Of a DNA stretch of 64,000 nucleotides, positions 1 through 16,125 are shown piece by piece. A program made the translations under genes and the position numbers. Every line of letters starts with the position of its first letter. Within the stretch, counting starts at the first letter, position 1. The DNA is taken from NCBI GenBank assembly GCA_030429765.1, contig JAUIER010000012.1, positions 32,916 through 96,915 on the forward strand, in the 5' to 3' direction. Source of the DNA: a bacterium (GTDB lineage: Bacteria; Omnitrophota; Gorgyraeia; Zapsychrales; Zapsychraceae). The notes beneath the pieces were generated by a model, which was given only the letters and a program-made list of their open reading frames with translations, was not told the DNA's origin and searched no databases.

Positions 1-3000
1 GAATTTCCAGATTGGCTGACCATTAGGAAATCTCAAACCACCACCAGCCGGCGTTGGACTTTCATCGTATCGTGTTACCCGAAACTTGACTATACCATCC
101 GTATTGAACAGCTCATAGCAACGCTTCAACCCCCCCTTTCGGGTATAGGTCTCCACCTTGGGCCACTTAGGATCGGGACCTCCACCAACTCCACAGGCAT
201 TGTTACACCTCTTGGGTATTCGTCCCTCGACCTTTACGATATGCCAATAGGCCTCTCCCGGAGCTGCCGGCCTGTTTTCAGGTGAATTATCCTCCTGCCA
301 CCCATAAACGATTTGATTGGGCCAATCATCTGGTGGCGCTGCGTCATAGGCTATCCGTTCGTCGATCAACGGAGGAACCGCGTTGGTCAGAAAATCCTCA
401 AATTCGACGATGGCTGTGGTGAGAATATTCCGGAAGTAGTTTAACTCAGTCATTCTCGAATCCAGATAATCCCGGCGCATAATAAATTTGTCGATCTGGT
501 TTTCCGCCTCTATAGCCGCCGTTCCCGTGGAGGCTAGCCATCCTCCCGGGTTAATGTCACAAATAGGATTGGCCTGCACCAGTGAATCTCGCACCAACGT
601 GCGCATTCCGCGAGCATCATTCAAATCATTACCGTTACAGTCAAATATGGCATTAAAGTTGGAAATAGTTCCGCTGTAGGCATAAGCGGCCCCACTAGAC
701 GATTGAGTTAACGGCATGGCGGATAACACCGGATTCCATGGTAATCCGGCCGCCATTCCACGGCAGGTTAAATCCGAGCAGGCGTGAACACATTGGAGCA
801 TAGCAGCCATATCCGGCTCATCCAGCGGATCGGCCTGCACGTAGGCATTTCGATCATATGGCGGATTCGTCACCAATGTTCGCGGCAAATTGGTACATTC
901 GGCCAATGAGCAGGTTAGTTTACAATCATTGTACTGTGCATCGTTGCCGTCAAATATGCTTGATGCATTCAGACAGGCTACATCGGGGACCCCCCCGTTA
1001 CAAGTGTAATCATATCCGTGTATCGCGTAGTTGAGGCAAGCCACAACATCCTCAATTTGTCCATCCGTGCCGTCACCATTAAAGTCAAAAGTCAATTCCT
1101 CATAGGCACTTACGTCCGGACATCCCCGTGGCGGTACACACCACGGCCCCGTCGCACAAGCACTTCCCTGAAAACTTTGGACGGCCAGTGCACTCAGCTC
1201 ATCCCGAATGTCCACCAAGGCCTGTAGCCACAAATACAACTGCCCGGCAAATGGTTGGCATTCATCCGGCGTTCCCGGATCATTATCCCAATCATAAGGG
1301 TAGCAATTACCAAAATTGCCCGTCCCTCCTGGACTGGCCGCATTGGCCAATCCCTGGCCCGGATCGATCCATCGCTGCCAATTCTCAAACCATGTCTCAA
1401 ATTGCGATGCCAACTGACCGCGACTGTATTGCAATAGCGAATCAGCTTCTCGCGTAAATGTGTGCGTGTTATATATCATCTCGTCAAGAATATCCTCAGG
1501 GAAATTAGCGGCCGCGGTATCAGCTGGGCTGGTTGACGTCGGGTCCTCGCACTCACATATGGATGGTTCAGGGGTTCCGGAGACATTCGTCGTACAGTTA
1601 CCGTTCAGGAATTTGGCACATTGCCCACTGTAAGGCCATGCGGAAGGACCATCTATATCACCATTGGAACAAAATTGATCAGACCCACGCTTCCAGAATG
1701 CCCCCCCGGCATATGGGTCCGGCGCACATGTATCAACCGGGATTTCAAACGAACCTGTTAACGCCAAGGTCACATCATCAACATACGTCTCTACACAGTA
1801 GGATGTGTCATACGTCATGGTTGACGGGTCATTCCGTAATACCAGCTGATTCATTTCATATGGAAGATTAGGCGAACACAATGTAGCAGCCCTTGAATCA
1901 CACCATTTACACCGCTGGTCAAATGGGTTATAGACAGGGTTACCGATGACAAGCGTGCCCACCGTGTCCAATGAGTCCAGATCGGTTCCCCAGTCATGGA
2001 TCTTCCACAAGAATGGGAACACACCTATACGGTTTTCCGGAGTTGATGGCGGAGGAGCCGTGTACCCCGAATAGAATCCGGTGGTGTCGTCGACATAGTA
2101 ACGAATTCCCTGCCACGGAGGAGCAAACTGCTGCGCCCAGTTAGGGTTGGAGGAATCCTTGAAGTATCGTTGATTCTCGTCATCCTTGCCTAGGAGTTCC
2201 CGGAAGGAGAAAAAGGTATTTTCAGAATTTTCGAAATTTTCGTCAAAAACCCACTGATAGAAAGTCCCCAATGATGGCTCTACAGCCCCATATGGACTAA
2301 GCAATTGACAGGTACTGGCCGTTCCGCACTCCAAGTTTGGCGGGAAGAGTGTTGGATCACAGTAATCAGGGTTGGGTACCGTGATCAACGGTCCAGACGG
2401 GTTTGTTGGATCTGGTATCTGAATCGTCGGAGGTTTACCTCGACAGTCACAACATCCTGGTCGAACCTGAATCTGTCCAAAGGAAGGGCCTCGAGGATCA
2501 GGTACCGTGTCTGGCAAACAACACAAATTACACTCGGATGGGACCGAAAAAGGAAACGGATCGGTTACAGGATTGCCGTAAGGAACGTTGATATCCACGT
2601 GGCAAGGATGCGATGGATCCAGCGGAATCGAAAACGAGTAGTTGATAGTGCTGGTTTGCAGACCCGGGACGAAAGTTCCTGGCATGGGGTCAATTAGCGC
2701 CCAAGCCGGCTGGCAGGTCGCAGAATCCAAATCACATTCAGAGGCCGGTCCACAGGTGGTTCCAAAACAATCTCCGTTGGGCCCCGGAATCTTGTAAATA
2801 AAATCTTGAAGATCAACCAAAAATTGCTCTGCCGCAGGCAGATAATTTACGGCTATCTGGTCCAGCAAGAGCGGATAATATTTGGCGTACCGGTTCATGG
2901 TATCAAGCGGTTCAGATGTCACCGGATGAAGACCAAAGATACCATCCATATCTGAATCGTACAAATCTGGAACCTGCTTGTTGTCATTGGCTGCCACTTG

Positions 3001-3474
3001 AATAGCCCCGCGCATGGCGTTGGCCATAAACTGATCCACCGTATCCAGTAAGTTGGCCTCCAGATTATTCCATGCGCTGGTGATTTGGGAGCCTATGGAC
3101 ATTTGGAGTACCACCCCGACACCGGCAACAGCCACCGTGGTTATCGCAGCTGTCGCCCCAATAGCACCAACCCCGTACGTTACAACAACCAGAATAACAA
3201 TTACAATAAACGATATCAGCGCCTTGAAGAATCCTGTGCTTTGGCATTTCTTGCGTTCCCCACCCAGCTGCTGCATAAGCAACGAGTGCCCGTAGCTGGC
3301 CATGGCCGAGGCCAATGATGCCGCCCCGGTATTAGCCCCTATCTCCGTGGAAACTTTGTTTTCAGAGATCCGCCCCAAATTTAGTGTTACAGCATAAAAT
3401 ATCAACGCAAATGCGACAACCAAAAGGATAACCAGTCCGGCCTGGCCTTCTTTTTTTCGCATCGATTTGTTCAT
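1..3474 (-). CDS. Giant Cys-rich TadG-like protein, partial: N-terminus at 3474, C-terminus beyond the window start. N-terminal Tad/TadE-like pseudopilin-type TM segment (MNKSMRKKEGQAGLVILLVVAFALIFYAVTL), then a Cys/Pro/Gly/Asp-rich extracellular region.
   Basis: Manual translation of the reverse strand from ATG at 3474 stays open to position 1 (1158 codons) with no stop. The ORF track shows only short spurious ORFs here, because the long ORF has no stop inside the window. N-terminal hydrophobic segment resembles Tad/TadG (PF13400-like) proteins. About 50 Cys, including CC and CxC pairs. Confidence 0.6.
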   Translation of the reverse strand, partial: MNKSMRKKEGQAGLVILLVVAFALIFYAVTLNLGRISENKVSTEIGANTGAASLASAMASYGHSLLMQQLGGERKKCQSTGFFKALISFIVIVILVVVTYGVGAIGATAAITTVAVAGVGVVLQMSIGSQITSAWNNLEANLLDTVDQFMANAMRGAIQVAANDNKQVPDLYDSDMDGIFGLHPVTSEPLDTMNRYAKYYPLLLDQIAVNYLPAAEQFLVDLQDFIYKIPGPNGDCFGTTCGPASECDLDSATCQPAWALIDPMPGTFVPGLQTSTINYSFSIPLDPSHPCHVDINVPYGNPVTDPFPFSVPSECNLCCLPDTVPDPRGPSFGQIQVRPGCCDCRGKPPTIQIPDPTNPSGPLITVPNPDYCDPTLFPPNLECGTASTCQLLSPYGAVEPSLGTFYQWVFDENFENSENTFFSFRELLGKDDENQRYFKDSSNPNWAQQFAPPWQGIRYYVDDTTGFYSGYTAPPPSTPENRIGVFPFLWKIHDWGTDLDSLDTVGTLVIGNPVYNPFDQRCKWCDSRAATLCSPNLPYEMNQLVLRNDPSTMTYDTSYCVETYVDDVTLALTGSFEIPVDTCAPDPYAGGAFWKRGSDQFCSNGDIDGPSAWPYSGQCAKFLNGNCTTNVSGTPEPSICECEDPTSTSPADTAAANFPEDILDEMIYNTHTFTREADSLLQYSRGQLASQFETWFENWQRWIDPGQGLANAASPGGTGNFGNCYPYDWDNDPGTPDECQPFAGQLYLWLQALVDIRDELSALAVQSFQGSACATGPWCVPPRGCPDVSAYEELTFDFNGDGTDGQIEDVVACLNYAIHGYDYTCNGGVPDVACLNASSIFDGNDAQYNDCKLTCSLAECTNLPRTLVTNPPYDRNAYVQADPLDEPDMAAMLQCVHACSDLTCRGMAAGLPWNPVLSAMPLTQSSSGAAYAYSGTISNFNAIFDCNGNDLNDARGMRTLVRDSLVQANPICDINPGGWLASTGTAAIEAENQIDKFIMRRDYLDSRMTELNYFRNILTTAIVEFEDFLTNAVPPLIDERIAYDAAPPDDWPNQIVYGWQEDNSPENRPAAPGEAYWHIVKVEGRIPKRCNNACGVGGGPDPKWPKVETYTRKGGLKRCYELFNTDGIVKFRVTRYDESPTPAGGGLRFPNGQPIWKF

Positions 3475-3509
3475 AAATGACATCATATAATTGATTGTCC
3501 CGGGGCTAA

Positions 3510-3791
3510 TTAGTTGTCCCAAATAGCATTCATCGCCGTCCCCGACGAGAAAAATGGAGAAATCTGTGCAATTTGCTGACTGTCAGATACATTGGTATAT
3601 GACCGGCTCAACGTTTGACCGGTCAATATTGTGTCATGCGCAATCCTACGATTTACGATCTCTTTTCCTGACCATTCAAAAATTTTGGTTATCGAATAAA
3701 TCATCAGAAACACGATGATCATACTGAAGGTAAACTCAATGATGACCTGACCCAAGCGTCGTTCTTCAGATGTCTTCTTTCTTCGAATCAT
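3510..3791 (-). CDS. TadE-like pseudopilin (93 aa)
   Basis: N-terminus RRLGQVIIEFTFSMIIVFLMI matches the TadE-like pattern (basic residues, then G-Q/A, then an E-containing hydrophobic helix). Spacing to neighbours is 18-40 nt. Confidence 0.55.
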   Translation of the reverse strand: MIRRKKTSEERRLGQVIIEFTFSMIIVFLMIYSITKIFEWSGKEIVNRRIAHDTILTGQTLSRSYTNVSDSQQIAQISPFFSSGTAMNAIWDN

Positions 3792-3830: not shown

Positions 3831-5246
3831 TTACGGATATAGATACTGAACAAATGGATCTCCGTCCGTCGGCGTTATCCATTTTCGGCCATGCTTATCT
3901 GTTATCCGGCTTCGGACCAAAATGTGAGGATCCTGCCCGCCCAAAGTAGGAATAACCATACAGATTCTTGTCGCATTGGCGCTGGTAAAACAACAGGCAT
4001 TATTCGGACAGCACACCTCCACAGGATTACGCACATCTGATGTCCACCCAGCCTGATTTCCTTCAATCGTGCCCGGTTGAACTACAGAACTTCCATCCCC
4101 CGCCGTACCGTTGCAAAATCTGCCCGTATCATTACTCAGTTGAACCGTCCTCTGGATCAAATCAAGTGAATCTTTACGCTGTGCAGAACGAACATATCGT
4201 CTGGAATCGCCAGCCACCTGATACAACTGCCCCTCATCGATTTGAAGATAAGTGCCCACACCGTCACCGGCAGGTGTCCAATCTTTCGTAAATGTAAACA
4301 TTTGGATGTCTTGTGTCGTGATGCCCGCTGTCGGACGCTGCGGAGCCGGATTGAGAGGATCCGGATCTGGAATTGTAAAGTCCATGTCCCCTTCCTGGAA
4401 ATCCACCACATTGGCTGTTATCGGAGTCCCCCTCAGATCATCCATTGGACGGCCGTTGATACCAACAATCCTTTCCTGGTGCAAATCTCCATCGACATCC
4501 ACAAATGTAAATTCACCGTTTTCACCATCTATCTGTGAAGGTGTCGCAGCAATCCACTGCCACCAAAAATCCTGGCAGATCGCATCCATAGCCGGATCCG
4601 ACGCCAGTCCGTCATCAAGAGCCCCGTTTCGATCCAAATCGAATCGGTAGTAGTTGTTACCGCCGATATTGTCCACACAATTGGACGCCGTACCTCCACA
4701 ATCGCACCATGGTAATGCCGGGTGGTTGTTTTCTTTCTGATATACCAGCCCCGTGGGGTTGGCCGGAGAATTAAATGCCTTTGTCGCCACATTGGCTGTA
4801 GTGAACACAAAGTGCACCCCGTTAATAAAGTAATCGATAACCGGCAAATTGGCAAATTCACCCGGATCAATCGGCATAAAAAGATTACGACTATGGGTTG
4901 CTCCCCCAATCGCTTGTTGGGGAACCCTGTCGATTGGTGCCTGCCTGGAAGATTCCACCGACAGCCTATCTTCAATTACCAAAACTGAGGCACTGTTGCG
5001 GGAGGCGGTGCCATCACGCCAGTTTCCCGGAACATTTTTCAAACCTTCCGTAAATTCAAATGACATGAGCATCGCCAAGCGGAATGCTTTATAGCGATGA
5101 TTTTGTGCATAACTAGTTGTCATGACAGATCTTACAATAAGTCCAATAACAAAAACCACAACCGATCCAAACACCGCTAGTTCCAGAGCAGTTTGCGCTG
5201 TTTTGGATCGCCCCGAAATGGCTTTTTTTGTACGGTTAATATTCAT
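3831..5246 (-). CDS. Large TadE/TadG-like pseudopilin-type protein (471 aa). C-terminal Cys-rich region (VCCPNNACCF).
   Basis: N-terminus GRSKTAQTALELAVFGSVVVFVIGLIV is a Tad-type pseudopilin leader plus TM. Shares CC motifs with the giant gene downstream. Confidence 0.6.
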   Translation of the reverse strand: MNINRTKKAISGRSKTAQTALELAVFGSVVVFVIGLIVRSVMTTSYAQNHRYKAFRLAMLMSFEFTEGLKNVPGNWRDGTASRNSASVLVIEDRLSVESSRQAPIDRVPQQAIGGATHSRNLFMPIDPGEFANLPVIDYFINGVHFVFTTANVATKAFNSPANPTGLVYQKENNHPALPWCDCGGTASNCVDNIGGNNYYRFDLDRNGALDDGLASDPAMDAICQDFWWQWIAATPSQIDGENGEFTFVDVDGDLHQERIVGINGRPMDDLRGTPITANVVDFQEGDMDFTIPDPDPLNPAPQRPTAGITTQDIQMFTFTKDWTPAGDGVGTYLQIDEGQLYQVAGDSRRYVRSAQRKDSLDLIQRTVQLSNDTGRFCNGTAGDGSSVVQPGTIEGNQAGWTSDVRNPVEVCCPNNACCFTSANATRICMVIPTLGGQDPHILVRSRITDKHGRKWITPTDGDPFVQYLYP

Positions 5247-5249
5247 TTG

Positions 5250-5564
5250 CTAGTATGCTCCCACAGCCATAGAACCGGTTTTGGTTTCCAGTGAACGCGA
5301 GACATCATTACGCATTGTTTGCAGTCCAGACGGAGTCGATACAGACACCAGAGCCGTAACCGTATTCGTTTGAATAACATGACGTATACTTCCATTAGTC
5401 GTTCGAGGATCATACTGATCGCCTAATTGATCCACCGATTCTTTCCAACGTCCTTGCATGCCTCGCTTGAAGTAGTTTTGAGAGGCCACCAAGGCCCCTA
5501 TTACGATAATTAAAATCGTCGAGTATTCGATCGCTGATTGACCTTTGTTCTTTCTAATAATCAT
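5250..5564 (-). CDS. Flp-family (class III signal peptide) pilin-like protein, 104 aa
   Basis: N-terminus MIIRKNKGQSAIEYSTILIIVIGALVA carries the G/A-Q-x3-EY prepilin motif followed by a hydrophobic helix. Confidence 0.55.
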   Translation of the reverse strand: MIIRKNKGQSAIEYSTILIIVIGALVASQNYFKRGMQGRWKESVDQLGDQYDPRTTNGSIRHVIQTNTVTALVSVSTPSGLQTMRNDVSRSLETKTGSMAVGAY

Positions 5565-5591: not shown

Positions 5592-5939
5592 TTAAACGTC
5601 TGGTTGGATCCCCAAATTAGTCAGGGTGTTAAGTTGGCCTGAAATCGCATCATCATAGACATAATTGATTATGCCGGCTACGTCTAATGTTTGCTTGTCT
5701 ACTCTGGCACTGGATATGCCATAAGATGCATTCAAATGCCCCTGGGTTATATCATTGAATCGCTGATCGGATTCGTTCTGCACGCCAATTTGATCGGCCA
5801 CAAATCTAATCCAACCTTGGGTGGAACGACGGATCATCGTTCCCATAACAGCCGTAATTGCCACAATAATCGTCAAAATCAGCGTATATTCGACCACCGT
5901 CTGGGCTCTGTGATTAGATTGTTTACTTTGCTTGAGCAT
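5592..5939 (-). CDS. Flp-family pilin-like protein, 115 aa
   Basis: N-terminus ...HRAQTVVEYTLILTIIVAITAVMG (A-Q-x3-EY motif plus hydrophobic helix). Confidence 0.5.
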   Translation of the reverse strand: MLKQSKQSNHRAQTVVEYTLILTIIVAITAVMGTMIRRSTQGWIRFVADQIGVQNESDQRFNDITQGHLNASYGISSARVDKQTLDVAGIINYVYDDAISGQLNTLTNLGIQPDV

Positions 5940-5944: not shown

Positions 5945-6325
5945 TTAGTCCGCGTTTATGGCCGGAACTGTGAAACTGACAGAATTTGAAAATGTTGTTT
6001 GGTTGTAATCCTTGCGAAATATTCCAGAACTAAGTGGCAAGGAAGGTAATACGGCCGTCGTATCTGCAAATAAGGTCGTGGTATCTGTAACAGAATTTCG
6101 ATAGTATGGCTCATACTGTACGAAGACATCATTACCTCCGTAGATGTTTCCTACACGATTTCGAACGGTCGTGATAATGGAACTGTGGGCATCGCGAATT
6201 TTTGCCTGCACAGCCCGTCTAAAGTACATTGTCATTCCTGACAGCATGGCAACAACCACAAAAAAAACCAGAACATATTCTCCGGCGACCATTTGGGCTT
6301 TTTCATTTTCAAATCGTCTTAACAT
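5945..6325 (-). CDS. Flp-family pilin-like protein, 126 aa
   Basis: N-terminus ...EKAQMVAGEYVLVFFVVVAMLSGMTMY (A-Q-x4-EY motif plus hydrophobic helix). Confidence 0.5.
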   Translation of the reverse strand: MLRRFENEKAQMVAGEYVLVFFVVVAMLSGMTMYFRRAVQAKIRDAHSSIITTVRNRVGNIYGGNDVFVQYEPYYRNSVTDTTTLFADTTAVLPSLPLSSGIFRKDYNQTTFSNSVSFTVPAINAD

Positions 6326-7592: not shown

Positions 7593-7760
7593 TTACTGAT
7601 TTCTGGACTCTTGAAGAATTATTTGTTGTGTTGCTTGTACTGATCTAAATACATAGGTACTCATGGCAATTGCTCCTGCTGCCACAATGGCTGCGATTAA
7701 GGCATACTCTAGTATACTTTGACCTGTCGTGTTTCTGATTTTTTGTTTCTTTGACCTCAT
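7593..7760 (-). CDS. flp: Flp prepilin, 55 aa (MRSKKQKIRNTTGQSILEYALIAAIVAAGAIAMSTYVFRSVQATQQIILQESRNQ). Below the ORF-track size cutoff.
   Basis: Found by manual reverse-strand translation. Classic Flp motif: a predicted cleavage site after G, then QSILEYALIAAIV. Typical Flp size. First gene after a dedicated promoter and leader. Confidence 0.6.
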   Translation of the reverse strand: MRSKKQKIRNTTGQSILEYALIAAIVAAGAIAMSTYVFRSVQATQQIILQESRNQ

Positions 7761-7912
7761 CGTAACCACCTTATGTATTTCACAAATAATGCCTGCTCTC
7801 GATGTGATGTTGCTTACATCAGAATCCTGAGAGCTCTATTGCTGAAGGGGTCGACTGTCCAGCCGGCCTTCAACACTTCGAAACATCCTGACTGATTCAG
7901 AACGAACCGAAG

Positions 7913-7935: not shown

Positions 7936-7947
7936 TTAACTCATTCC

Positions 7948-8111: not shown

Positions 8112-8139
8112 AGTATATCATATATCGAGTAATTGTCAA
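8112..8139 (-). promoter_or_regulatory. Sigma70-like promoter for flp
   Basis: On the minus strand: TTGACA at 8139..8134, a 16-nt spacer, TATACT at 8117..8112. Lies immediately downstream of the stop of the 576-aa gene. Predicts a 5' UTR of about 345 nt. Confidence 0.45.
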
Positions 8140-8164: not shown

Positions 8165-9895
8165 TTATATTAGGTCGAAGTTTAGCCGCCGCCCCTGTCG
8201 ATCCCGGATGTCCCGTGAATTGATCTCCTTGACCGCATGAATTAGCGAAGCCTTTGAATCCGCGGCCGATCCTGCCGAAATAGTCACATATACATGGCTC
8301 TCGTCCAATCGGTATGTGGCGGCACGGTCAAAAGTATCTGAAATTGTTAGACTTACGTATTTGCTGAGATATTGCCCCTCTACATAGGCCTGAACATGAG
8401 ATAAAAGTTGCTCGAACATTCCATCGACGTTCATTATAGTTGTCGCTGCGATCGGTTGAGAAGCCGACGGATCCTCATTTGAGGATACGGGCGCTTGATT
8501 GACATATTTCCGCATGAATGCATCCAGGATGTCCGTATCGGCCGTTTCTGCATTAGTAACCAGGGCCACTAGCGGCTCAGGTGATTCGTGAGCCCAAATG
8601 GCAAATACTGTCAGTGGCTGACTCAAATCATGAACATGTTCGTTCAGAATGTCGGTCGACATCTTGGCATACTGATAGATTGTGTCGTCATCATGACAGT
8701 AATAGGGGATTCGCTGGGCCCATTTCCCCGATTTGACCAATTCCTTCAGTTCTGGCTGACTTGGATGGACTCCAATGATAAATTCCCTGCGCTTAGGGAC
8801 CACGAAGGGTAGACTGGACAATGATCGTGATTCGCCATCAAGTATGTGGACCTCGTTTATAAAAAGCTGCTCTGGAATCTCAAATGATTCGACTAACGCC
8901 GCTATCTCCGGGCTTCCCAAGGAGCGTCCCTCGCTATTAAGCAGACACAAAGTATTGCTATTACTGACGATACAGCTGTCCAAAACAGAAATAGCCTTGT
9001 AAAGCGGTAGCTTCGTTGAAAAATTGTCATTTTTTTGTCCAATCTGAAATAGCTTTGTGTCCAGTTTTAGAGATCGTCCATCCGAAAAATCGATCTGGAA
9101 ACTCTGCGCCATGTTCTTGAGTTGATCAATCTCCAACTCTGCACGGGCCCAAAACGAGCCTGACTGTGAAGAATCAGTAATTTTGCCAATGACTCCCTCA
9201 TTTTGGAGTGGAAGCAACAAGGCTAAATCATTTCGACCTGAGTCTGAAGGGCCATTTTTCTCAAGCCTTGTGAGAATCTGAAAATCCAAGGCCTGGATCG
9301 TTTCCTGAGAATTAATGTCCAAACTGAGATCTCGAAAGAGTTCTGTGTAAAAATTTGACGATAGACATTCACATACACCGGCCAACATAAAAGTCAATCC
9401 TGCGTTGCTAATCGGATGCTCCTCCAAACCTTGTTTCCTTGACCGAATTGTTTCTACGGAGCGTAAGAACTCTTCGTCCAAACCACTCTCAGATTGGACA
9501 TTATTTTTGATCGCGTCCATTTCTTCTGTTTGACCAGAATCCGACATTGTCTGTACAGCTTCACTCTTTGTCGGATCATTTTCCTGGGGAGTAGTGACCC
9601 CTTCGGTTTCGGTCGGTATCGGGATCTTGGTGAGGTCCTGCGAAATCTGAATTTTCTTTTCAGCCGGGATCTCAAACTTCTTTTTCTTCTCGACCTTGAC
9701 CTTGGCCGGTCGACCAACGGAATTGCTTAAATTAGCTTGTTTTAGGATGGTGTTGATGGAGGATTTTGACACCTTGATCTCAAATTTCTCAGATGTCATC
9801 TCGGCTAGTTTTCGACAGCCCAGCTTGGGATTTGATTGCTTCTGATCAAGTATATAGTCGATAACTTCTTTTTTTAGTTTGTGGACAACACCCAT
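8165..9895 (-). CDS. HTH-domain protein of unknown function, 576 aa. N-terminal transposase/regulator-like HTH, a Lys-rich linker, then a large uncharacterised soluble region.
   Basis: N-terminal 60 aa (…KLGCRKLAEMTSEKFEIKVSKSSINTILKQANLS) looks like an IS630/ISL3-type HTH. No TM segments. Sits where tadB/tadC would be expected. Confidence 0.65.
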   Translation of the reverse strand: MGVVHKLKKEVIDYILDQKQSNPKLGCRKLAEMTSEKFEIKVSKSSINTILKQANLSNSVGRPAKVKVEKKKKFEIPAEKKIQISQDLTKIPIPTETEGVTTPQENDPTKSEAVQTMSDSGQTEEMDAIKNNVQSESGLDEEFLRSVETIRSRKQGLEEHPISNAGLTFMLAGVCECLSSNFYTELFRDLSLDINSQETIQALDFQILTRLEKNGPSDSGRNDLALLLPLQNEGVIGKITDSSQSGSFWARAELEIDQLKNMAQSFQIDFSDGRSLKLDTKLFQIGQKNDNFSTKLPLYKAISVLDSCIVSNSNTLCLLNSEGRSLGSPEIAALVESFEIPEQLFINEVHILDGESRSLSSLPFVVPKRREFIIGVHPSQPELKELVKSGKWAQRIPYYCHDDDTIYQYAKMSTDILNEHVHDLSQPLTVFAIWAHESPEPLVALVTNAETADTDILDAFMRKYVNQAPVSSNEDPSASQPIAATTIMNVDGMFEQLLSHVQAYVEGQYLSKYVSLTISDTFDRAATYRLDESHVYVTISAGSAADSKASLIHAVKEINSRDIRDRQGRRLNFDLI

Positions 9896-9960: not shown

Positions 9961-10326
9961 CTAACCAAGAATAATTTTGTCAGCGACTTGAGTGCGGGAA
10001 GATTGGATGACTCCTACTGGAACTTCGATGGCGGATTTTGCCTTCCAGTAAATTCGGCTTAGCCGATTGGGTCGGATATTTTGGACCAAACCCACCACGG
10101 TATTATTGTCATCGATAAAAATCACATCAATGGCGAAACGCATAAAGAACATGTGAATAGAATTACAATGGGTGATTAGCAGACCGTGACCCGGCTCTAG
10201 GGACTTGTGCTTAAGTAATCCCACCATTCTGGACATAAAGGTATCTGCTAAGACGGCTTGATCTGCGATAACCGTATTACGGGTGGAGTTTTCTATCTTC
10301 ATAAGGGTTAGGTTTTGATGTGCCAA
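9961..10326 (-). CDS. DUF192 (COG1430) family protein, 121 aa
   Basis: Size and sequence pattern (…GLLITHCNSIHMFFMRFAIDVIFIDDNNTVVGL…) typical of DUF192. Confidence 0.6.
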   Translation of the reverse strand: MAHQNLTLMKIENSTRNTVIADQAVLADTFMSRMVGLLKHKSLEPGHGLLITHCNSIHMFFMRFAIDVIFIDDNNTVVGLVQNIRPNRLSRIYWKAKSAIEVPVGVIQSSRTQVADKIILG

Positions 10327-10344: not shown

Positions 10345-12504
10345 CTAGACAGGCTTGTTGAACATCTCTTTATTGAAGTTCATTCCACGGGTAATAAAGT
10401 CGTGGTAACAGTTGGGGACGTATCCTGTGGCCTCAAACTGACCGAGAATCTTGCCATTGCTGTCCATCCCCTTTTGTTTAAATACAAAAACATCCTCGAG
10501 ATGAAGTTGAAAATCGGCCGTGAGTCCTGTTGTCTCGCTGACCCCCGTGATCTTTCTCGAACCGTCTGAATAACGGTTGATGTGAACGATGATCTGAATC
10601 GCTGAGGAGATCATCTCGTTAATCGCACGCACTGGCAGCTCGATACCACTTAACAGAATCATCGAGTGCATTCGGGTCAATACATCGCGTGTTGAGTTGG
10701 CGTGTAGCGTGGTCATTGATCCATCGTGACCGGTATTCATCGCCTGAAGCATATCAAGAACCTCGCCCCCGCGACACTCACCGATAACAATCCGGTCAGG
10801 ACGCATCCGCAGACAGTTGATAAACAAATCACGAATCGTGATCTGCCCTTTACCCTCAACGTTCGCTGGGCGTGACTCCAGACGTCCCCAATGGCTTTTC
10901 TTCAATCGAAGCTCAGCGGCGTCCTCAATCGTGATAATACGCTCGCTGTCGGGAATAAATTCTGAAACGACGTTTAGGAGCGTTGTTTTACCCGCACCTG
11001 TACCACCCGAAACGATCATATTTTTACGGCAAATAACACATGCCTGAAGAAAATCGGCCATTTCCTTGGTGATACTGCCGTATTTTTCAATCAAATCATT
11101 GACCTCGATACGTTCCTGCCCAAACTTTCGAATGGTGATCATTGGTCCGCCCAACGACAAAGGTGGAATAATGGCATTGATCCGCGATCCGTCCTGCAGA
11201 CGGGCATCAACCATCGGAGTCGATTCATCGATTCGTCGACCTAATGGCGCGATGATACGATCAATAATGGAGCGCATCTTTTCATTGGAAACAAATTTTC
11301 GATTGGTAAAAATCAACTTACCATTCTTCTCGACGTAGATTTCGTCCTTGTTGTTGACCATGATATCCGTTACGTCGGGATCGGCCAGGAAATCTTCCAA
11401 AGGACCCAGTCCAAGGGCCTCATTGACAATATCACGGACCACGCGTGTGCGCTCTTCTTGTGAGGAAATCTTACCACCAGACTCCTCCATAAGTAAGTTA
11501 AGAACGACCTGCTCGGCGCTTTTCTTGACCTTTACCGCCGATTCCGGATCACCCAGCATATCAACCGAAATTCCGTCGAGATTAAGCCGTTCGACCAATT
11601 TCTCATGAATCCGTTTCTTCAGCGATATAATCTCATCCTCTTCCGTCGCAAATGTCGTTGTCGTTCCCGCTTGCTGCGTGACACCAAATTTTTCCCAGAA
11701 CGATCCTTGTCCGGACATACCGTCAGTTGATCTGACCTTTTCGACATTGCTGGTCTCAACGTAAATATCGTTCTTCTTGAGCGCATTGACCATTTTGTTG
11801 AATGCATCAGCCACCCCGCTGCGAGGGCTATCTAATACGCAAGGAATCCCCTTGTTAAGGGCCATTCCGACCGTTTTTCCATCTGAAGGAATGTGCGCTA
11901 ATATTTCAACTGGAATCGCCGATCGAACTTCCTGCCAATGGACACTTCCGCGGCTCTCCGAACGGTTTAAGATCAGGCGGACCATATTCATCGGGTAGTG
12001 GAGACTCTGTAAAACGTCCAGACAATTCTTAATCTGATACACAGATAAAATATCCGGCGTTCCGACGAGAAGAATCAAATTCGTGTGGTCCAGCGCGGCG
12101 ACTAGAATATCACTAAACGTACGACCGGCATCAATAATGACATACTCGTATTGTTTGCGGGCAATACGAAAGAACGCCTGTAAAGCCTCGGCATTAACCT
12201 GAGCGATTTCTTTATTGTTTTTTATGGCTGGTAGGAAATGAAGTCCACTTTGATGGACGGTGGCATGCTGAGCTAACGGATCTTGATCGGCATTTGGATT
12301 GCTGAACGTGGGTATGATATCGACGACGGAATTACGAACCTGGACATTAAGCATTCGGGACATATCCTGTCCGGCCTGCATGTCTAGATCGACGAGCAAC
12401 ACCTTTTTTCCAGCTTTGGCTAGTGAAGCCGAAAGGTTTACTGCCGTCAGCGTTTTTCCAACCCCGCCCTTGCTGCTAAAGACGGTAATAATTCTACAAT
12501 CCAT
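10345..12504 (-). CDS. Fused pilus ATPase: N-terminal TadZ/CpaE-like ParA/MinD-type domain (no receiver domain) plus C-terminal TadA/CpaF secretion ATPase
   Basis: Deviant Walker A SSKGGVGKTLTAVNLS at residues 10-25 (ParA/MinD class). Second P-loop VSGGTGAGKTTLLN with T2SSE-family motifs (RIITIEDAAEL, GHDGSMTTLHANS) in the C-terminal half. Confidence 0.85.
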   Translation of the reverse strand: MDCRIITVFSSKGGVGKTLTAVNLSASLAKAGKKVLLVDLDMQAGQDMSRMLNVQVRNSVVDIIPTFSNPNADQDPLAQHATVHQSGLHFLPAIKNNKEIAQVNAEALQAFFRIARKQYEYVIIDAGRTFSDILVAALDHTNLILLVGTPDILSVYQIKNCLDVLQSLHYPMNMVRLILNRSESRGSVHWQEVRSAIPVEILAHIPSDGKTVGMALNKGIPCVLDSPRSGVADAFNKMVNALKKNDIYVETSNVEKVRSTDGMSGQGSFWEKFGVTQQAGTTTTFATEEDEIISLKKRIHEKLVERLNLDGISVDMLGDPESAVKVKKSAEQVVLNLLMEESGGKISSQEERTRVVRDIVNEALGLGPLEDFLADPDVTDIMVNNKDEIYVEKNGKLIFTNRKFVSNEKMRSIIDRIIAPLGRRIDESTPMVDARLQDGSRINAIIPPLSLGGPMITIRKFGQERIEVNDLIEKYGSITKEMADFLQACVICRKNMIVSGGTGAGKTTLLNVVSEFIPDSERIITIEDAAELRLKKSHWGRLESRPANVEGKGQITIRDLFINCLRMRPDRIVIGECRGGEVLDMLQAMNTGHDGSMTTLHANSTRDVLTRMHSMILLSGIELPVRAINEMISSAIQIIVHINRYSDGSRKITGVSETTGLTADFQLHLEDVFVFKQKGMDSNGKILGQFEATGYVPNCYHDFITRGMNFNKEMFNKPV

Positions 12505-12560
12505 AATTTCAAACTTACTGAAGAATGACTAATGAAAATTTAACGTATTATATACCGCTA

Positions 12561-14222
12561 TTAGTTTGTTTGCAAACTATAAACAATCGGAATTGTTATG
12601 TTCAGTTCCTGTAAGTCTGTCTCTGGTGGAAAACTTTCAAAAGGTGCAGTTTCACGGGCTGTATTTAAGGCATAGTCATCAAAGATTTCCTGCCCGGATG
12701 TTTCCTTGACTAGAGCATAGGCCAACGTGCCATCGCTCAGGATGTGCAGACCGATTTTGACAGTCCCTTCCCATCCGTAATCCTTGGCCTCCTGAGGATA
12801 AACAACTTGCTCAGAAATAGCCTGCTGAAGGTTTTGCACGTAATCGGTCATTTCCGGTGGAATAAATGACGAGTAGTCATCTCCTCCGGACATGGACATA
12901 TCCGACATAAACTTCGTCGTCGTAGGGTGCGGAACCTGACTATCCATCATCTTTTTACGAGGCGAATCCTCATTGAGCCCCGTATCGATTCGATGAGGTG
13001 TTAGTGAAATCACTAACTCGACATCTGAATCTGGTGATGGTGTTGATCGGGATCGGAAAACCAATCCGACAACTGGAATGCTGCCTAAAAATGGTACCTT
13101 TTTAACCAATTCACCCGAACGCTGTTGGATCAAACCGGCCAATACGATCGTTTGTCCATCATCAAGGAATAGCTGTGTGCTTGCGCTTCGCGTAACGAAG
13201 GCCACGTCATCCCCCACCGCATTCGAGTTGTCAATATCACTGATCTCAATATTGATCTGAACGTCAATCTTGTTACGCCGAATCGTCGGTGTGATCGTCA
13301 TTCCAATACCATACTCCTTAAATTCGACGTTTTCTTGAGTAGACGTTCCTGTCGATGTCGTCGTACGAATTGGAATTTCACCACCAATTAGGAAACTAGC
13401 CTCTTCGCCGCTCAGAACTACGAGTTTAGGTTGCGATAGGATTCGTCCCATACCTTCTTCTAATAGAGCATTTACGGTAGAAATCAGGGCGCTTGTACGA
13501 CGGAAGTCCCCAATCTTGAAGAAATCTCCAATGGATCCATCAAAATCAGGCAAGTCCTCTGCATAGTCCAGCTTAATACCTCCGCCGGATCCGGTGGCGC
13601 CATTACCACCACCAGCTGTCCAGTCAATCCCTAGACTCTTGGTTAAGGTGGTGTTAAGCTCCGTAACTTGTATGTCGATTTGAACCAAATCTTCGATGTC
13701 CTCTTCTTCCACAAGGCTTAGAACATGTTGGTCAAACGGAGCAATGATATCATCAAACAGTATGGCCTTTTTGTCAGGCACACTACCAGTTAGGACAACC
13801 CGCCCTTCCGGCTTATTGATATCCAATTTTACGTTGTTAATTCCAGCCCCATTGAGAAGTCGTTCAAGTCGATCTTTAATGACGCTTAACTCGGTTCCTG
13901 AGACGTTAATCATAACCACACGTTTGCCATGTTCGTCCCAGATAAATAAAGGTGTTTGGCCCACGTTTTTGGCAATCAGCAGGATTTCCTGTTCGTCGGC
14001 ATCGACAACGTCAGCAATGTCTGGATCAGTCATCGAAAGTCGGGTCAGGGAATATACGCGTAGTTGCGTCAACTCCCCCAGAACCATGTTGACTTCATCG
14101 GTGTATATTGTATCTAAAGCCTCAGCATCGGCTTGTTGAGGTCTTATTAGCCCAAGTCCCATTATTAGGAAGAGCGCCATTATGGTGAAAAATCTGTTAT
14201 GAGTTATCTGTGCTGTTTTCAT
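12561..14222 (-). CDS. CpaC/RcpA-type secretin with a C-terminal TonB_C-like domain
   Basis: Signal peptide, secretin N-domain, secretin core (…LIGGEIPIRTTTSTGTSTQENVEFKEYGIGMTITPTI…). The C-terminal roughly 90 aa (VVYPQEAKDYGWEGTVKIGLHILSDGTLAYALVKETSGQEIFDDYALNTARETAPFESFP) matches the TonB C-terminal domain pattern (PF03544). Confidence 0.8.
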   Translation of the reverse strand: MKTAQITHNRFFTIMALFLIMGLGLIRPQQADAEALDTIYTDEVNMVLGELTQLRVYSLTRLSMTDPDIADVVDADEQEILLIAKNVGQTPLFIWDEHGKRVVMINVSGTELSVIKDRLERLLNGAGINNVKLDINKPEGRVVLTGSVPDKKAILFDDIIAPFDQHVLSLVEEEDIEDLVQIDIQVTELNTTLTKSLGIDWTAGGGNGATGSGGGIKLDYAEDLPDFDGSIGDFFKIGDFRRTSALISTVNALLEEGMGRILSQPKLVVLSGEEASFLIGGEIPIRTTTSTGTSTQENVEFKEYGIGMTITPTIRRNKIDVQINIEISDIDNSNAVGDDVAFVTRSASTQLFLDDGQTIVLAGLIQQRSGELVKKVPFLGSIPVVGLVFRSRSTPSPDSDVELVISLTPHRIDTGLNEDSPRKKMMDSQVPHPTTTKFMSDMSMSGGDDYSSFIPPEMTDYVQNLQQAISEQVVYPQEAKDYGWEGTVKIGLHILSDGTLAYALVKETSGQEIFDDYALNTARETAPFESFPPETDLQELNITIPIVYSLQTN

Positions 14223-14225
14223 AGT

Positions 14226-15104
14226 CTATAGCTCCGCGCCCCCCCGAAAGATTTGAACAAAAGGCAAGTCATCCGCTTCAACTTCCTCGACTTCGACAGA
14301 CTCACGCCGCTCTGCTTTTTTCTGCTTTGGCAGATTGAGCTCTGTCCCTTGCTTATCCAAAACATAATCGGATAGTGAATCCCAGGCGGCCACTTGTAAC
14401 GCTTTAGTGTCTTTCTCCGCCGGAGATCGTAGGGCTAGTTTTAACTTTCCGTATTTCTGAGAAAAAGTGATCAACCCCGCTTCTTCAGGGGCGACTGCGA
14501 TCGTGACATTCAAGTCCCTTGATTTTTGTTGTTGCTGATAAACCAGCGCACTTCCTACCGGTTTAAAATTCGAATTGACGGCCAGCACCTGAATGTTCTG
14601 GAAGAGCACAGATGTAACTTCCAGTGGTTTTTCGAGAGGATCTTGGGGATGTGGCACCTGCAGATCAGCCAAGATATCTACATAATCTCCCGGATTGATC
14701 AATCCACCTACCGCCGATAGAGAATCGATCAGAATTGTCATGGCGCGTTTTCCTGGAGGTGTGATTGAAGCGAACACTGTACTGTCCACAATTTGCGTCG
14801 GCATGCCGGCGGCTGATTTGGCAACTTCACCTTTTGGAAGGTTAGCTAACTGTGCCTGCAACGCTTTTTGCTGTTGCTGCGCCATGGCCTGCATTTGTTT
14901 ATGTAATTCGCGGTTTTTGATCTCCATCTCTTTCCGCAAAGCAGCCGTTTGGGCTTGGGACTTCTTTTCGTAGTCCTGGGCCAATGCCTTGGTTTGTGAT
15001 TCAATACTTCCTTTAACGTATTGACTCATCAAGAAGGCAGCCACAAGCCCTAAACCCACAGCTAGTAGTATCGTTGCAAATTGTTTTTTGTTTTCAATGT
15101 TCAT
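14226..15104 (-). CDS. CpaB/RcpC-like pilus assembly protein: N-terminal TM, Gln-rich coiled coil, SAF/RcpC-like domain
   Basis: Matches CpaB in topology, domain pattern and position upstream of the secretin. Confidence 0.6.
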   Translation of the reverse strand: MNIENKKQFATILLAVGLGLVAAFLMSQYVKGSIESQTKALAQDYEKKSQAQTAALRKEMEIKNRELHKQMQAMAQQQQKALQAQLANLPKGEVAKSAAGMPTQIVDSTVFASITPPGKRAMTILIDSLSAVGGLINPGDYVDILADLQVPHPQDPLEKPLEVTSVLFQNIQVLAVNSNFKPVGSALVYQQQQKSRDLNVTIAVAPEEAGLITFSQKYGKLKLALRSPAEKDTKALQVAAWDSLSDYVLDKQGTELNLPKQKKAERRESVEVEEVEADDLPFVQIFRGGAEL

Positions 15105-15117
15105 AGTTTCACCTCGG

Positions 15118-16125
15118 TTATTTTAGCAAATCCTCCCGGACCTCAACAGTTACCTTTTCTTTGACATTGTCGATGTAATCCAGTATGGCTTGTTGTTGTT
15201 TGAGCAAGGTTTGTGACTGGATGATGTCTTCTTTGATTTCACTGAAAGGTATCGTTTTACCGCCACGAATATCTTCCAGTTTTATGATGTAAAAGCCTTT
15301 GGGGCCTTTAAATACGTTACTGGTACCGCCCTTTTCAAGAGCCAAAATTTCCTGGGCCATCGCCGGAAATGGTTCCTGGGTGATGTAGCCCAAATCTCCG
15401 CCTTTTGACTTTGAATCGGCAATTGAATTGAGTTTGGCTAACTCGGCAAAATCGGATCCCTTGAGCACATCCACCAGGATCTCATTGGCTTTAATCTGGT
15501 CCTTGACCACGATTTCGCGAACCCGGTATTCCGATGGTTCGACCAATTGCTCTTTTTGCTCTTCATAGAATTTTTTGGCGTCTTCTTCCGTGACCTCAAC
15601 GTTTTCGGTGATCTTTCGAGCTGATTCCCGAACCAGAAGAGTGCGTCTGAATTCTTCGACAGCCGCTACGATATCTTTGTCTTGGGCCACACCGGTCCGT
15701 TCGGCATCTTCTACTAATAGTTGCTGACGGACTAACTCCTCCAGAATCAGCTTTTTGGCATCAACATTCTCTGCATCGAAATCGGGGACTACCTCTTTAA
15801 GGGCATCCAACCGTTCGTTAAACTCATCTAATGTGATGGTCCAATTACCCACTTTGGCCAGAAAGTTACCGTCTGATGGTTTGGATGGCATACTTTTCGG
15901 CATCGCTTTTTGAGGTGTTTCAGCTTTGGCCATTTGTTGTGGAGGTGGAGATTGTGGTTGAGTCTGTTTATTGACAACCGGCGGCTTGGGTGTGGAAGTA
16001 GCCACCATCTTCTTTTTGTCTTTCGAGAGGTGTTCTTTAATTGAGGAAATCATGTCGCATCCGGAGACGCTTGAAACAAACACAGTTGCCAACAACAATT
16101 TGAAAATAACGTACCTGGTTTTCAA
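15118..16125 (-). CDS. SurA/PrsA-like parvulin-type peptidyl-prolyl isomerase lipoprotein
   Basis: Lipobox VSSVSGC. Pro/Gln-rich linker. PpiC-type domain (…SKSKGGDLGYITQEPFPAMAQEILALEKGGTSNVFKGPKGFYIIKLE…). First gene of the minus-strand cluster. Confidence 0.7.
   Translation of the reverse strand: MKTRYVIFKLLLATVFVSSVSGCDMISSIKEHLSKDKKKMVATSTPKPPVVNKQTQPQSPPPQQMAKAETPQKAMPKSMPSKPSDGNFLAKVGNWTITLDEFNERLDALKEVVPDFDAENVDAKKLILEELVRQQLLVEDAERTGVAQDKDIVAAVEEFRRTLLVRESARKITENVEVTEEDAKKFYEEQKEQLVEPSEYRVREIVVKDQIKANEILVDVLKGSDFAELAKLNSIADSKSKGGDLGYITQEPFPAMAQEILALEKGGTSNVFKGPKGFYIIKLEDIRGGKTIPFSEIKEDIIQSQTLLKQQQAILDYIDNVKEKVTVEVREDLLK

Follow-up and report, generated by a model that had tools for sequence, protein, structure and literature searches.

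Positions 1-16125 of the window, the whole 64,000-nt stretch of DNA analyzed, carry a series of genes, all on the minus strand (Table 1). They represent the upstream four-fifths of a Tad-type (type IVc filament) cluster conserved in Omnitrophota, which is flanked on one side by origin-proximal dnaA-dnaN-gyrB-gyrA and on the other by a giant ORF. An earlier sequence-only reading had described a Tad/Flp-type locus; every gene that it listed is present, its main domain calls were upheld by Pfam and TIGRFAM searches, and the locus type is borne out by the CpaF, RcpA, CpaB, and TadB/TadC assignments. The gaps of 3-65 nt that it reported throughout do not hold between the HTH gene and flp (404 nt) or between the 109-aa and 126-aa pilin-like genes (184 nt).

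Table 1. Features of the Tad-type cluster and of one detached pilin-like gene (window coordinates; the vertical bar in motifs marks the presumed prepilin cleavage position)
Feature	Position	Strand	Evidence
Periplasmic PPIase (parvulin type, SurA/PrsA-like), probable lipoprotein; first cluster gene	15118..16125	-	Rotamase_2 5.8e-20
CpaB/RcpC	14226..15104	-	PF16976 RcpC 5.3e-23
RcpA/CpaC-type secretin with C-terminal TonB_C	12561..14222	-	Secretin 1.8e-40, T2SS-T3SS_pil_N 2.3e-10
Fusion ATPase: MinD/ParA-family (residues ~1-255) and TadA/CpaF motor (~330-700)	10345..12504	-	
DUF192 protein, fixed place after ATPase	9961..10326	-	PF02643 4e-18
576-aa protein, putative N-terminal helix-turn-helix	8165..9895	-	HTH_Tnp_Tc3_2 4.4e-4, HTH_32 1e-3
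Sigma-70-like promoter ahead of flp	8112..8139	-	TTGACA-16-TATACT with TG, 11/12 matches
flp, putative short Flp-type prepilin, 55 aa (~42 aa mature)	7593..7760	-	Flp_Fap 4e-4, below cut-off
Second short Flp/class III-type prepilin, 73 aa	7312..7533	-	Class_IIIsignal 1.5e-6, above cut-off
Minor pilin-like, 119 aa	6901..7260	-	A|QNTAEY motif, then hydrophobic helix
Minor pilin-like, 109 aa	6510..6839	-	Class_IIIsignal 0.013; G|QSTLEY motif
Minor pilin-like, 126 aa	5945..6325	-	A|QMVAGEY motif, Glu shifted to +6
Minor pilin-like, 115 aa	5592..5939	-	A|QTVVEY motif
Minor pilin-like, 104 aa	5250..5564	-	Class_IIIsignal 0.059; G|QSAIEY motif
Large pilin-like protein, 471 aa	3831..5246	-	Prepilin-type N-terminus and beta-rich 10-Cys globular domain
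Putative TadE-like small pseudopilin, 93 aa	3510..3791	-	TadE E=0.19; G|QVIIEF motif
Cys-rich TadG-like giant, first 1162 of 1270 residues	1..3486	-	
Detached Flp/class III-like gene, 70 aa	17400..17612	-	A|QSMTEY motif; Class_IIIsignal 0.061

The PPIase also matches the Pfam families Rotamase_3, Rotamase and, weakly, SurA_N_3 (5e-5), and its N-terminus (...VFVSSVSG|C) constitutes a lipobox. Promoter-like sites are located ahead of the gene at 16243-16215 and 16190-16162, and a homologue occupies the same position in 69 of 81 loci. CpaB, which possesses a single N-terminal TM segment, scores 102.5 bits against TIGR03177 (pilus_cpaB; cut-off 71) and has homologues in 74/81 loci. The nearest solved structure to the secretin is RcpA (8odn; 7e-36); its TonB_C domain spans residues 472-550 (3.1e-14), and this end is covered by all 79 secretin homologues in the related loci. 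The fusion ATPase matches AAA_31 (2.3e-21), ParA (1.2e-17), T2SSE (2.6e-59), and the TadA family TIGR03819 (6e-99). Its C-terminal half matches Caulobacter CpaF (8rkd/9e24) at 3e-112 versus 5e-36 for archaeal FlaI, while the N-terminal half sits in the TadZ/CpaE position and has ParA/MinD (3ea0; 1e-15) as its top match. The 55 matches to this half at E≤1e-3 include no chain under the name TadZ; in sequence the domain is MinD/ParA-like, orthology to TadZ not being demonstrable. Both domains are kept in 78 homologues. The DUF192 protein has homologues in 74/81 loci, and a sequence search for solved relatives found none.

Both HTH matches of the 576-aa protein fall below the Pfam cut-offs, and a PDB profile search gave no match. 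Homologues occur in 60/81 loci, with good conservation limited to the first ~60 residues, and HTH families are the only ones recurring among 30 members of the group; the protein is a probable regulator of the locus. When 40 related loci are aligned, at least 70% retain the flp promoter motif, which is followed by a structured 345-nt leader (folding z = -3.29).

The motif of Flp is G|QSILEY, and 39 of 40 orthologues display [GA]|Q with Glu+5 and Tyr+6; it is the candidate major pilin. Of the six further pilin-like genes after flp, one, the 73-aa prepilin (G|QSTVEY; Glu+5 in 56/56 orthologues), exceeds the Class_IIIsignal cut-off. Glu+5 is likewise found in 102/103 members of the 109-aa family, 30/31 of the 115-aa family, and 35/35 of the 104-aa family; in the 126-aa family Glu is mostly at +6 (14/19), and the 119-aa protein is paralogous to flp and the other pilin-like genes. 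The detached 70-aa gene, which lies outside 1-16125, belongs to the same pilin family, matching the 73-aa pilin at 1e-10. The motif [GA]|QxxxE[YF] is common to all pilin-like genes, and the Pfam families recurring in 131 pilin-like proteins are Class_IIIsignal (22), Flp_Fap (20), TadE (5), and Flp1_like (4). The TadE-like family possesses Glu+5 in 26/29 and Phe+6 in 21/29 members. The flp, TadE, and HTH assignments are putative ones, drawn from sub-threshold Pfam matches together with motifs.

The two large Cys-rich pilin-like or TadG-like proteins (471 and 1270 aa) noted previously are present, and neither matches Pfam. The globular domain of the 471-aa protein bears DxDxDG-like acidic loops; its predicted structure, a confident model, joins a long helix at the N-terminus to a beta domain and has no match among PDB folds. 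The 1270-aa protein contains 48 Cys and has a prepilin-like N-terminus with a GQxxL[ILV] motif, yet Glu+5 is found in 0/30 homologues. Two hydrophobic segments occur beyond the prepilin-like one, with hydrophobic stretches at residues 11-41 and 80-133. The family comprises 432 clusters at 50% identity (E≤1e-3); a PDB search gave no match, and the AlphaFold2 model (pLDDT 33.5) offers no usable structure.

A second contig, L001, is identical to the window (0 mismatches over 11,476 nt) and extends it beyond position 1. The Cys-rich giant, previously given as open-ended at >1158 aa, ends 327 nt past this position and is complete at 1270 aa (L001 7991-11803). Beyond it lie one further Cys-rich pilin-like gene and two T2SSF platform genes (TadB/TadC), the latter two ~880-2620 nt outside the window and encoding proteins of 285 aa (3.6e-17) and 292 aa (1.9e-13); their reported absence was an artifact of the window edge. 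These are followed by the giant ORF of at least 9568 aa, which has a Peptidase_C39 domain and transmembrane segments. The functional tie of the cluster to this ORF is one of adjacency only. The inventory includes one short Flp pilin and at least eight further prepilin-like genes besides the 471-aa and 1270-aa proteins.

The machine is genetically complete except for a prepilin peptidase. The absence of TadV was correctly recognized: no Peptidase_A24 was found in the window, the L001 extension, or, across 80 related loci, the ~10 kb flanking the ATPase on each side, and prepilin processing is assumed for this reason. Tad models permit a missing prepilin peptidase, and PMC8460266 characterizes these enzymes as promiscuous.

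Of the 188 relatives of the fused ATPase, the best 80 share the gene order and both fusions: gyrB-gyrA-mdh-PPIase-CpaB-secretin/TonB_C-MinD/CpaF fusion-DUF192-HTH-flp-pilins-471aa-TadE-like-giant-TadB-TadC. At least 80 species-level genomes, almost all of them carrying an Omnitrophota label, conserve this lineage-specific form, and the ATPase from the closest species-representative genome is 68% identical. Across this uncultured phylum the cluster strictly adjoins giant genes. West-Roberts 2023 reports, in section 11, a conserved locus resembling type II secretion that precedes the giant genes of Omnitrophota and has more than 10 genes, among them gspD/E/F homologues, rcpC, a gene for a Rotamase_2 PPIase, and several for class III signal peptides; giants that begin with a C39 domain at the N-terminus form a known class (bioRxiv 10.1101/2023.11.21.568195). 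Seymour 2023 cite a complete Tad complex in V. archaeovorus LiM (CP019384.1 12382-29832), with expression in co-culture with Methanosaeta (PMC10066038). Our cluster is an ordinary member of this published, lineage-specific kind, already outlined in the literature. New here are the shared [GA]|QxxxE[YF] motif in all pilin-like genes, the lack of Glu5 in any of the 30 giant homologues, and a confident predicted 471-aa pilin-like model lacking a PDB fold match; neither these nor the MinD/ParA-CpaF and secretin-TonB_C fusions figure in the locus descriptions of those passages of the two papers.

We are fairly confident that the region belongs to a complete gene cluster for a predicted Tad-type (type IVc) pilus or secretion machine. 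An unlinked A24 prepilin peptidase would cut the prepilins at [GA]|Q-x3-E-[YF], and the CpaF hexamer on TadB/TadC would polymerize Flp through the CpaB-secretin conduit, while the many Glu5-bearing minor pilins, the 471-aa protein included, may prime or decorate the fiber. The Glu5-less, three-segment giant may be either a first-in tip or cap subunit (GspK-like) or an unprocessed TadG-like membrane anchor; its two extra hydrophobic segments speak against extraction into a fiber. The PPIase presumably aids folding or insertion of the secretin and the disulfide-rich subunits. By analogy with roles proposed in the relevant passages on V. archaeovorus (PMC10066038) and the Myxococcus Kil system (PMC8460266), the machine and the adjacent giant surface protein likely act together in attaching to a host or prey cell, or in attacking it on contact.

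Judged by its genes, the machine would be compatible with either a filament or a short pseudopilus, and it might act mainly as a type II secretion-like exporter in which a short minor-pilin pseudopilus, not an adhesive pilus, pushes substrates through the secretin. Such substrates might be pieces of the adjacent giant protein, hydrolases, or the two Cys-rich proteins of 471 and 1270 aa. The term used in the West-Roberts section (type II secretion system-like, fixed upstream of giant genes), the unusually many minor pilin-like genes (at least nine), the Glu5-less subunit recalling GspK, and the Kil paper, which leaves a secretion role possible for a Tad-like machine (PMC8460266), all favor export. 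However, the core is entirely Tad-type (CpaF, RcpA, CpaB, a TadB/TadC pair, a 42-aa mature Flp), none of the T2SS-defining GspC/L/M proteins was seen, and the giant, which is at least 9568 aa long and has transmembrane segments, is an improbable secretin substrate; we consider an exporter unlikely.

The sequence-only reading had suggested a new type IV filament class in which large Cys-rich proteins substitute for TadB/TadC and the prepilin peptidase, and had named tadB/tadC/tadV next door as the finding that would contradict it; tadB and tadC are there, and tadV was not found. No T2SSF or Peptidase_A24 gene lies inside 1-16125, and the peptidase was not found near any related locus, but TadB and TadC are directly downstream on the identical contig and present in related loci, and the promiscuity ascribed to prepilin peptidases also argues against a new class, which is very improbable. 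A platform-less type IV filament system is refuted by TadB/TadC, which L001 places just outside the window; the variant is distinct as the lineage-specific form already reported. Some bacteria take up DNA with Tad-like pili, and the locus content does not contradict a competence/DNA-uptake or surface-motility pilus unrelated to host interaction and the neighboring giant gene. Given that comEA, comEC, and dprA were not seen in the cluster or window, the strict adjacency to giant genes, and the co-culture expression reported in the cited passage on V. archaeovorus (PMC10066038), such a pilus is scarcely credible.

The Tad-type pilus reading invites comparison with the canonical Tad/Cpa systems (Aggregatibacter flp-tad-rcp; Caulobacter cpa), with which the cluster shares the CpaF/TadA motor, the TadB/TadC pair, the RcpA/CpaC secretin, RcpC/CpaB, a short Flp with the G/XXXXEY motif, TadE-like pseudopilins, and a TadG-like last large protein. 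As the earlier reading recognized, order and fusions depart from the textbook flp-tadV-rcpCAB-tadZABCDEFG operon: tadBC follow the pilins, TadA is joined to a TadZ-position domain that has no TadZ_N receiver-like domain, and the secretin carries TonB_C. The locus lacks tadV, tadD, and rcpB, and adds the PPIase, DUF192, and HTH proteins, at least nine pilin-like genes, and the Cys-rich 471/1270-aa subunits. As in tip or priming minor-pilin complexes (T2SS GspK-GspI-GspJ; T4aP minor pilins with PilY1), one large Glu5-less, GspK-like subunit is present, its gene lying among several Glu5-bearing minor pilins, and the large subunits have acidic DxDxDG-type loops of the kind in the PilY1 calcium site. 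Neither sequence nor fold similarity to these complexes was detected, and the giant differs in its extra hydrophobic segments and 48 Cys; the likeness is positional only.

The Myxococcus xanthus Kil system is likewise a Tad-derived machine in a predator-type organism, contact-dependent prey killing being Kil's, with an ATPase bearing an extra fused N-terminal domain, an atypical secretin, no TadD or RcpB, many associated genes of unknown function, and a dispensable or shared prepilin peptidase (PMC8460266). In contrast, the Kil ATPase carries FHA in place of a MinD/ParA domain, the kil genes form two separate clusters with three pilins only, and Kil lacks the giant Cys-rich subunits and adjacent giant ORF (PMC8460266); the homology considered here is that of the Tad core. 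The closest counterpart is the Omnitrophota locus described in the passages of West-Roberts (bioRxiv 10.1101/2023.11.21.568195) and for V. archaeovorus LiM (PMC10066038): it shares the phylum, more than 10 genes, gspD/gspE/gspF-type homologues, rcpC, the Rotamase_2 PPIase, many small class III signal peptide genes, placement immediately upstream of a giant ORF whose N-terminus bears a C39 domain, and a location within ~10-30 kb of the genome start, near dnaA. From these descriptions our cluster looks orthologous to it, with no essential difference.

The Tad/Flp-type locus is real and conserved, and it does not lack its platform. All cluster genes in the window lie on the minus strand, and the gene for the Cys-rich giant protein runs past the edge at position 1. 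A look-up with the 471-aa protein led to L001, a 43.8-kb Logan contig that extends past this edge and is identical to the window across all 11,476 common bases. On L001 the giant is complete at 1270 aa, and beyond it lie a Cys-rich prepilin-like gene and two mutually related T2SSF proteins, TadB and TadC. The sequence-only reading had reported the platform as missing; this was therefore an artefact of the point at which the window was cut. Its observation is confirmed in part and its interpretation supported in part, the conserved Tad-type character standing and the platform-less character falling. The gaps of 3-65 nt that it gave hold for most genes, but flp is preceded by a gap of 404 nt and the 126-aa gene by one of 184 nt. 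About 700 nt to 1 kb beyond TadC begins an open reading frame of at least 9568 aa (the giant ORF), which belongs to the known Omnitrophota giant-gene class with an N-terminal C39 domain.

Features of the Tad-type cluster and its surroundings (window positions unless L001 is given; a slash marks the cleavage site)
Feature	Position	Strand	Evidence
Parvulin-type PPIase	15118-16125	-	Rotamase_2 5.8e-20; SurA_N weak; N-terminus ending in VSG/C lipobox
CpaB/RcpC	14226-15104	-	PF16976 5e-23; TIGR03177 above cut-off
Secretin	12561-14222	-	Pilus N-terminal domain; Secretin 2e-40; C-terminal TonB_C 3e-14
Fusion ATPase, 719 aa	10345-12504	-	First ~255 residues MinD/ParA-family (AAA_31 2e-21); last ~370 T2SSE (2.6e-59)
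DUF192	9961-10326	-	4e-18
576-aa protein	8165-9895	-	Weak N-terminal HTH only
HTH-flp spacer	7761-8165	-	404 nt
Promoter in spacer	8139-8112		Strong, sigma-70-like
Mini-ORF in spacer	about 8052-7984		22 codons, with ribosome-binding site (MNTFEIKTKISYRCCLRSLKQP)
Hairpin ahead of flp	7977-7956		Terminator-like, with T-run
flp	7593-7760	-	55 aa; Flp_Fap 4e-4, under Pfam cut-off; TG/QSILEY
Six more prepilin-like genes	7312-7533, 6901-7260, 6510-6839, 5945-6325, 5592-5939, 5250-5564	-	
471-aa protein	3831-5246	-	No Pfam match
93-aa protein	3510-3791	-	TadE E=0.19
Cys-rich giant	1-3486, continues past edge	-	No Pfam match
Cys-rich prepilin-like protein, 119 aa	L001 11827-12186	+	A/QSTIEI; 8 Cys in C-terminal half; between giant and TadB
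TadB, 285 aa	L001 12359-13216		PF00482 3.6e-17
TadC, 292 aa	L001 13219-14097		PF00482 1.9e-13
Giant ORF, at least 9568 aa	L001 15141 to contig end	locus strand	Peptidase_C39 at residues 209-332, 5e-11
Detached Flp/class III-like gene, 70 aa	17400-17612	-	A/QSMTEY; between CN-hydrolase gene and mdh
Genes upstream of cluster	16372-28141	-	dnaA at 26759-28141; dnaN, gyrB, gyrA
YidC, likely ParA/ParB, likely TrkA, TrkH, Rnf/Nqr-type membrane complex	28884-32669, 39804-42630, 56692-62514	+	TrkH confirmed

On sequence grounds, the cluster is best described as a bacterial Tad (type IVc) machine with lineage-specific additions, because it combines a CpaF-like ATPase, an RcpA-like secretin, CpaB, a TadB/TadC pair and a Flp of 42 aa when mature. 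Among PDB entries, the ATPase half scores best against Caulobacter CpaF (8rkd/9e24, 3e-112), the values for archaeal FlaI/GspE2 and VirB11 being ~5e-36 and ~1e-32; the best solved relative of the secretin is Pseudomonas RcpA (8odn, 7e-36). The best NCBIfam model for the ATPase is the TadA-family TIGR03819 (6e-99, under its own equivalog cut-off), and the GspE model TIGR02533 reaches 1.5e-10. GspE models thus score far below TadA/CpaF, and a type II secretion system was rejected; such a system has one GspF, whereas the cluster has two short T2SSF proteins, and GspC, GspL and GspM had no match in Pfam scans of the window and L001 proteins. An archaeal class III signal peptide pilus of the Epd/Aap type resembles the cluster in its pilin N-termini (PF04021), but the likeness is limited to these. 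The archaeal type has no secretin, and the combination of a CpaF-like ATPase with a secretin is bacterial Tad-type, so this candidate was likewise rejected. Compared with the Tad set, the cluster possesses TadA/CpaF, TadB/TadC, Flp, RcpA and CpaB but no TadV/CpaA (Peptidase_A24) in the locus.

Some of the remaining names are looser. The N-terminal domain of the ATPase retains an intact KGGVGKT motif, and its best PDB match is the MinD/ParA-like 3ea0 (1e-15); no TadZ_N domain was detected and no chain named TadZ occurred among the PDB matches at E<=1e-3. "TadZ" is therefore a positional call that does not imply orthology. The giant is TadG-like in its N-terminus and gene position, and a scan with PF13400 gave no match. 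For the DUF192 protein no PDB relative was found by sequence, and none of the 15 top-ranked DUF192 papers listed is about pili; a PDB profile search with the 576-aa HTH protein was without match.

When the fusion ATPase was searched against species-representative genomes, 188 relatives were recovered, and the surroundings of the best 80 were analyzed. These best 80 of the 188 match over the full length at 51-68% identity, and nearly all are labelled Omnitrophota or Omnitrophica; the Planctomycetales label on some binned MAGs is taken to be mislabelling. Comparison of the window proteins with six-frame ORFs of the related loci using phmmer reveals a constant order, gyrB-gyrA-(CN hydrolase)-mdh-PPIase-CpaB-secretin-ATPase-DUF192-HTH-flp, continued beyond flp by the pilins, the 471-aa protein, the TadE-like protein, the giant, the Cys-rich pilin, TadB and TadC. 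The TonB_C extension is present in 79/79 secretin homologues from these loci, and both ATPase domains in 78 homologues. In the window, dnaA, dnaN, gyrB and gyrA are found upstream of the cluster, with dnaA ~10 kb away, and the GC skew changes sign, with a turn in its cumulative curve, at ~26-28 kb; in 27 of the related Omnitrophota loci, gyrA is found upstream of the ATPase gene at a distance of no more than 10 kb. The Tad cluster and the giant gene are therefore origin-proximal across the clade. The Tad locus of V. archaeovorus (genome positions 12382-29832; Seymour et al. 2023, PMC10066038) is likewise origin-proximal. Housekeeping genes fill the remainder of the window. Its Rnf/Nqr-type complex consists of RnfD, one subunit with FMN_bind and two Rnf-Nqr subunits; ParA/ParB are likely, by their translated N-terminus only, TrkA is likely as well, and an Rfam scan of positions 1-30000 returned a single tRNA and nothing else.

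The pilin-like families all have the same N-terminal layout: after a basic leader come the [GA]/Q site, Glu at +5 (Glu5) and an aromatic position +6, and the hydrophobic helix that follows leads into Y[VI]xR[GSA]. Glu5 is kept in 39/39 flp sequences (the processing motif in 39/40 orthologues), 56/56 of the 73-aa family, 67/69 of the 119-aa, 102/103 of the 109-aa, 30/31 of the 115-aa and 35/35 of the 104-aa families, as well as in 26/29 TadE-like and 28/29 471-aa proteins. The 126-aa family carries its Glu at +6 instead, and none of 30 homologues of the giant has Glu5, its place being taken by I, L or V. The Pfam families that recur among 131 pilin-like proteins scanned singly are Class_IIIsignal (22), Flp_Fap (20, best 2e-7), TadE (5) and Flp1_like (4). 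The detached 70-aa gene lies ~1.3 kb before the cluster starts and is paralogous to the 73-aa pilin (1e-10); by best match, L012 alone among the 80 related loci has a counterpart, which sits inside the pilin run. Ahead of flp, the spacer promoter recurs in at least 70% of the 40 related loci compared, and the 345-nt flp leader is well folded (z = -3.29). Together with the mini-ORF and the hairpin, this leader could exert attenuator or leader control over the major pilin, or could hold a separate small gene.

The enzyme that would cut these leaders is the one element of the earlier claim of absence that was borne out. Because the common motif is the Flp G/XXXXEY site, an A24-type peptidase would be expected; no Peptidase_A24 was found in the window or in the L001 extension, nor within ~10 kb on either side of the ATPase at the 80 related loci, where a motif scan was run and Pfam was applied to every unassigned ORF with at least four hydrophobic segments. 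The multi-TM ORFs scanned in the window (YidC, TrkH, Rnf subunits) include no T2SSF protein or Peptidase_A24. The giant ORF's C39 domain was rejected as the prepilin peptidase, since C39 enzymes cleave after double-glycine leaders and the pilin motif reads [KRN][GA]/Q. A more novel reading would have the clade dispense with a dedicated A24 enzyme. The cluster would then be specialised in exporting and assembling large, disulfide-rich surface subunits, the 471-aa pilin and the Glu5-less 1270-aa family, and would act mechanically, where the cell touches its host, together with the neighbouring protein of at least 9568 aa that bears the C39 domain; DUF192, the PPIase, C39 or other parts peculiar to the locus would handle processing or assembly. 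We consider this very improbable. Under Tad models tadV may be encoded apart (PMC6668835), and promiscuity of prepilin peptidases has been described (PMC8460266). Neither tadV nor a prepilin peptidase is mentioned in the supplements of Seymour et al. 2023.

The 471-aa protein has at least 150 homologues, and the source names among the matches listed are all Omnitrophica/Omnitrophota hypothetical proteins. AlphaFold2 modeling from a 72-sequence alignment was confident (pLDDT 84.4, pTM 0.79) and yielded a β-rich domain behind an N-terminal helix of 64 residues, a predicted build which is pilin-like. Conserved acidic DxDxDG-like loops (D252, D254, E258, D282, G286, D287) and four invariant Cys residues suggest a putative calcium-binding, disulfide-stabilised extracellular domain. 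A profile search against the PDB returned no match, and the confidently predicted fold has no structural match in the PDB either.

The giant contains 48 Cys, many of them invariant. Its N-terminus is prepilin-like but lacks Glu5, and two more conserved hydrophobic segments are present (residues 80-133). A first homologue search and its alignment-based repeat returned the same 9 proteins; the exhaustive search showed the family to be far larger. Clustered at 50% identity, it numbers 432 clusters at E<=1e-3 and 328 at E<=1e-10, and its proteins are roughly 950-1700 aa long. No Pfam domain was detected in the giant, six distant members included, and a PDB profile search was without match; modeling of 1162 aa with a 9-sequence alignment gave no usable structure (pLDDT 33.5). 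The absence of Glu5 fits either a GspK-like first-in tip subunit or an unprocessed TadG-like membrane anchor, and the extra hydrophobic segments would favor the anchor. Cys residues are confined to a subset of the pilin-like proteins, namely the 119-aa L001 pilin (8), the 471-aa protein (10) and the giant, all others having none. In three divergent loci (L073, L075 and L076) TadB/TadC directly follow the small pilin genes, and phmmer detected no 471-aa or 1270-aa homologue there; the large Cys-rich subunits may therefore be subclade-specific, or have diverged past detection.

Omnitrophota are widespread, uncultured and ultra-small, and are thought to be predators or parasites; the cluster and the adjoining giant gene are the main genomic candidates for their attachment to, and attack on, other cells. 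The value of the present analysis is corrective and descriptive, in that what had looked like a new machine without a platform is a complete Tad-type one. The parts peculiar to the lineage are two fusions found across the phylum, the PPIase, DUF192, the HTH protein, about ten prepilin-like genes with a common cleavage motif, the 471-aa pilin and the Glu5-less giant family. V. archaeovorus grown with Methanosaeta is the one cultivated system in which proteomics, cryo-ET and structure prediction could address them.

Loci of this kind have already been published. According to the available text of West-Roberts 2023 (10.1101/2023.11.21.568195), Omnitrophota giant genes, which carry N-terminal C39 domains when full-length, generally have a conserved secretion system in front of them. 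It numbers more than 10 subunits and includes gspD/gspE/gspF homologues, rcpC, a conserved PPIase with Rotamase_2 and numerous small genes for class III signal peptide proteins. Each of these components, as well as the giant gene directly downstream and the Omnitrophota genome, is matched here, and the window cluster is that locus as described there. To this are added the complete inventory of parts and their coordinates, the status of both fusions across the family, the common cleavage motif, the Glu5-less giant family and the confident, unmatched 471-aa fold. A 2026 preprint (10.64898/2026.06.07.730766) reports secretion or pilus genes beside 13/14 giants and a C39 giant class of 24. In the available text of Seymour et al. 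2023 (PMC10066038), V. archaeovorus LiM has a complete, expressed Tad complex, and 74/116 Velamenicoccia species have two or three TadBC/RcpA-complex proteins. By analogy, a functional precedent for the cluster is Myxococcus Kil, a Tad-derived machine for contact-dependent prey killing, which has an ATPase with an extra fused N-terminal domain and an atypical secretin, lacks TadD/RcpB, and for which the peptidase is dispensable (PMC8460266).
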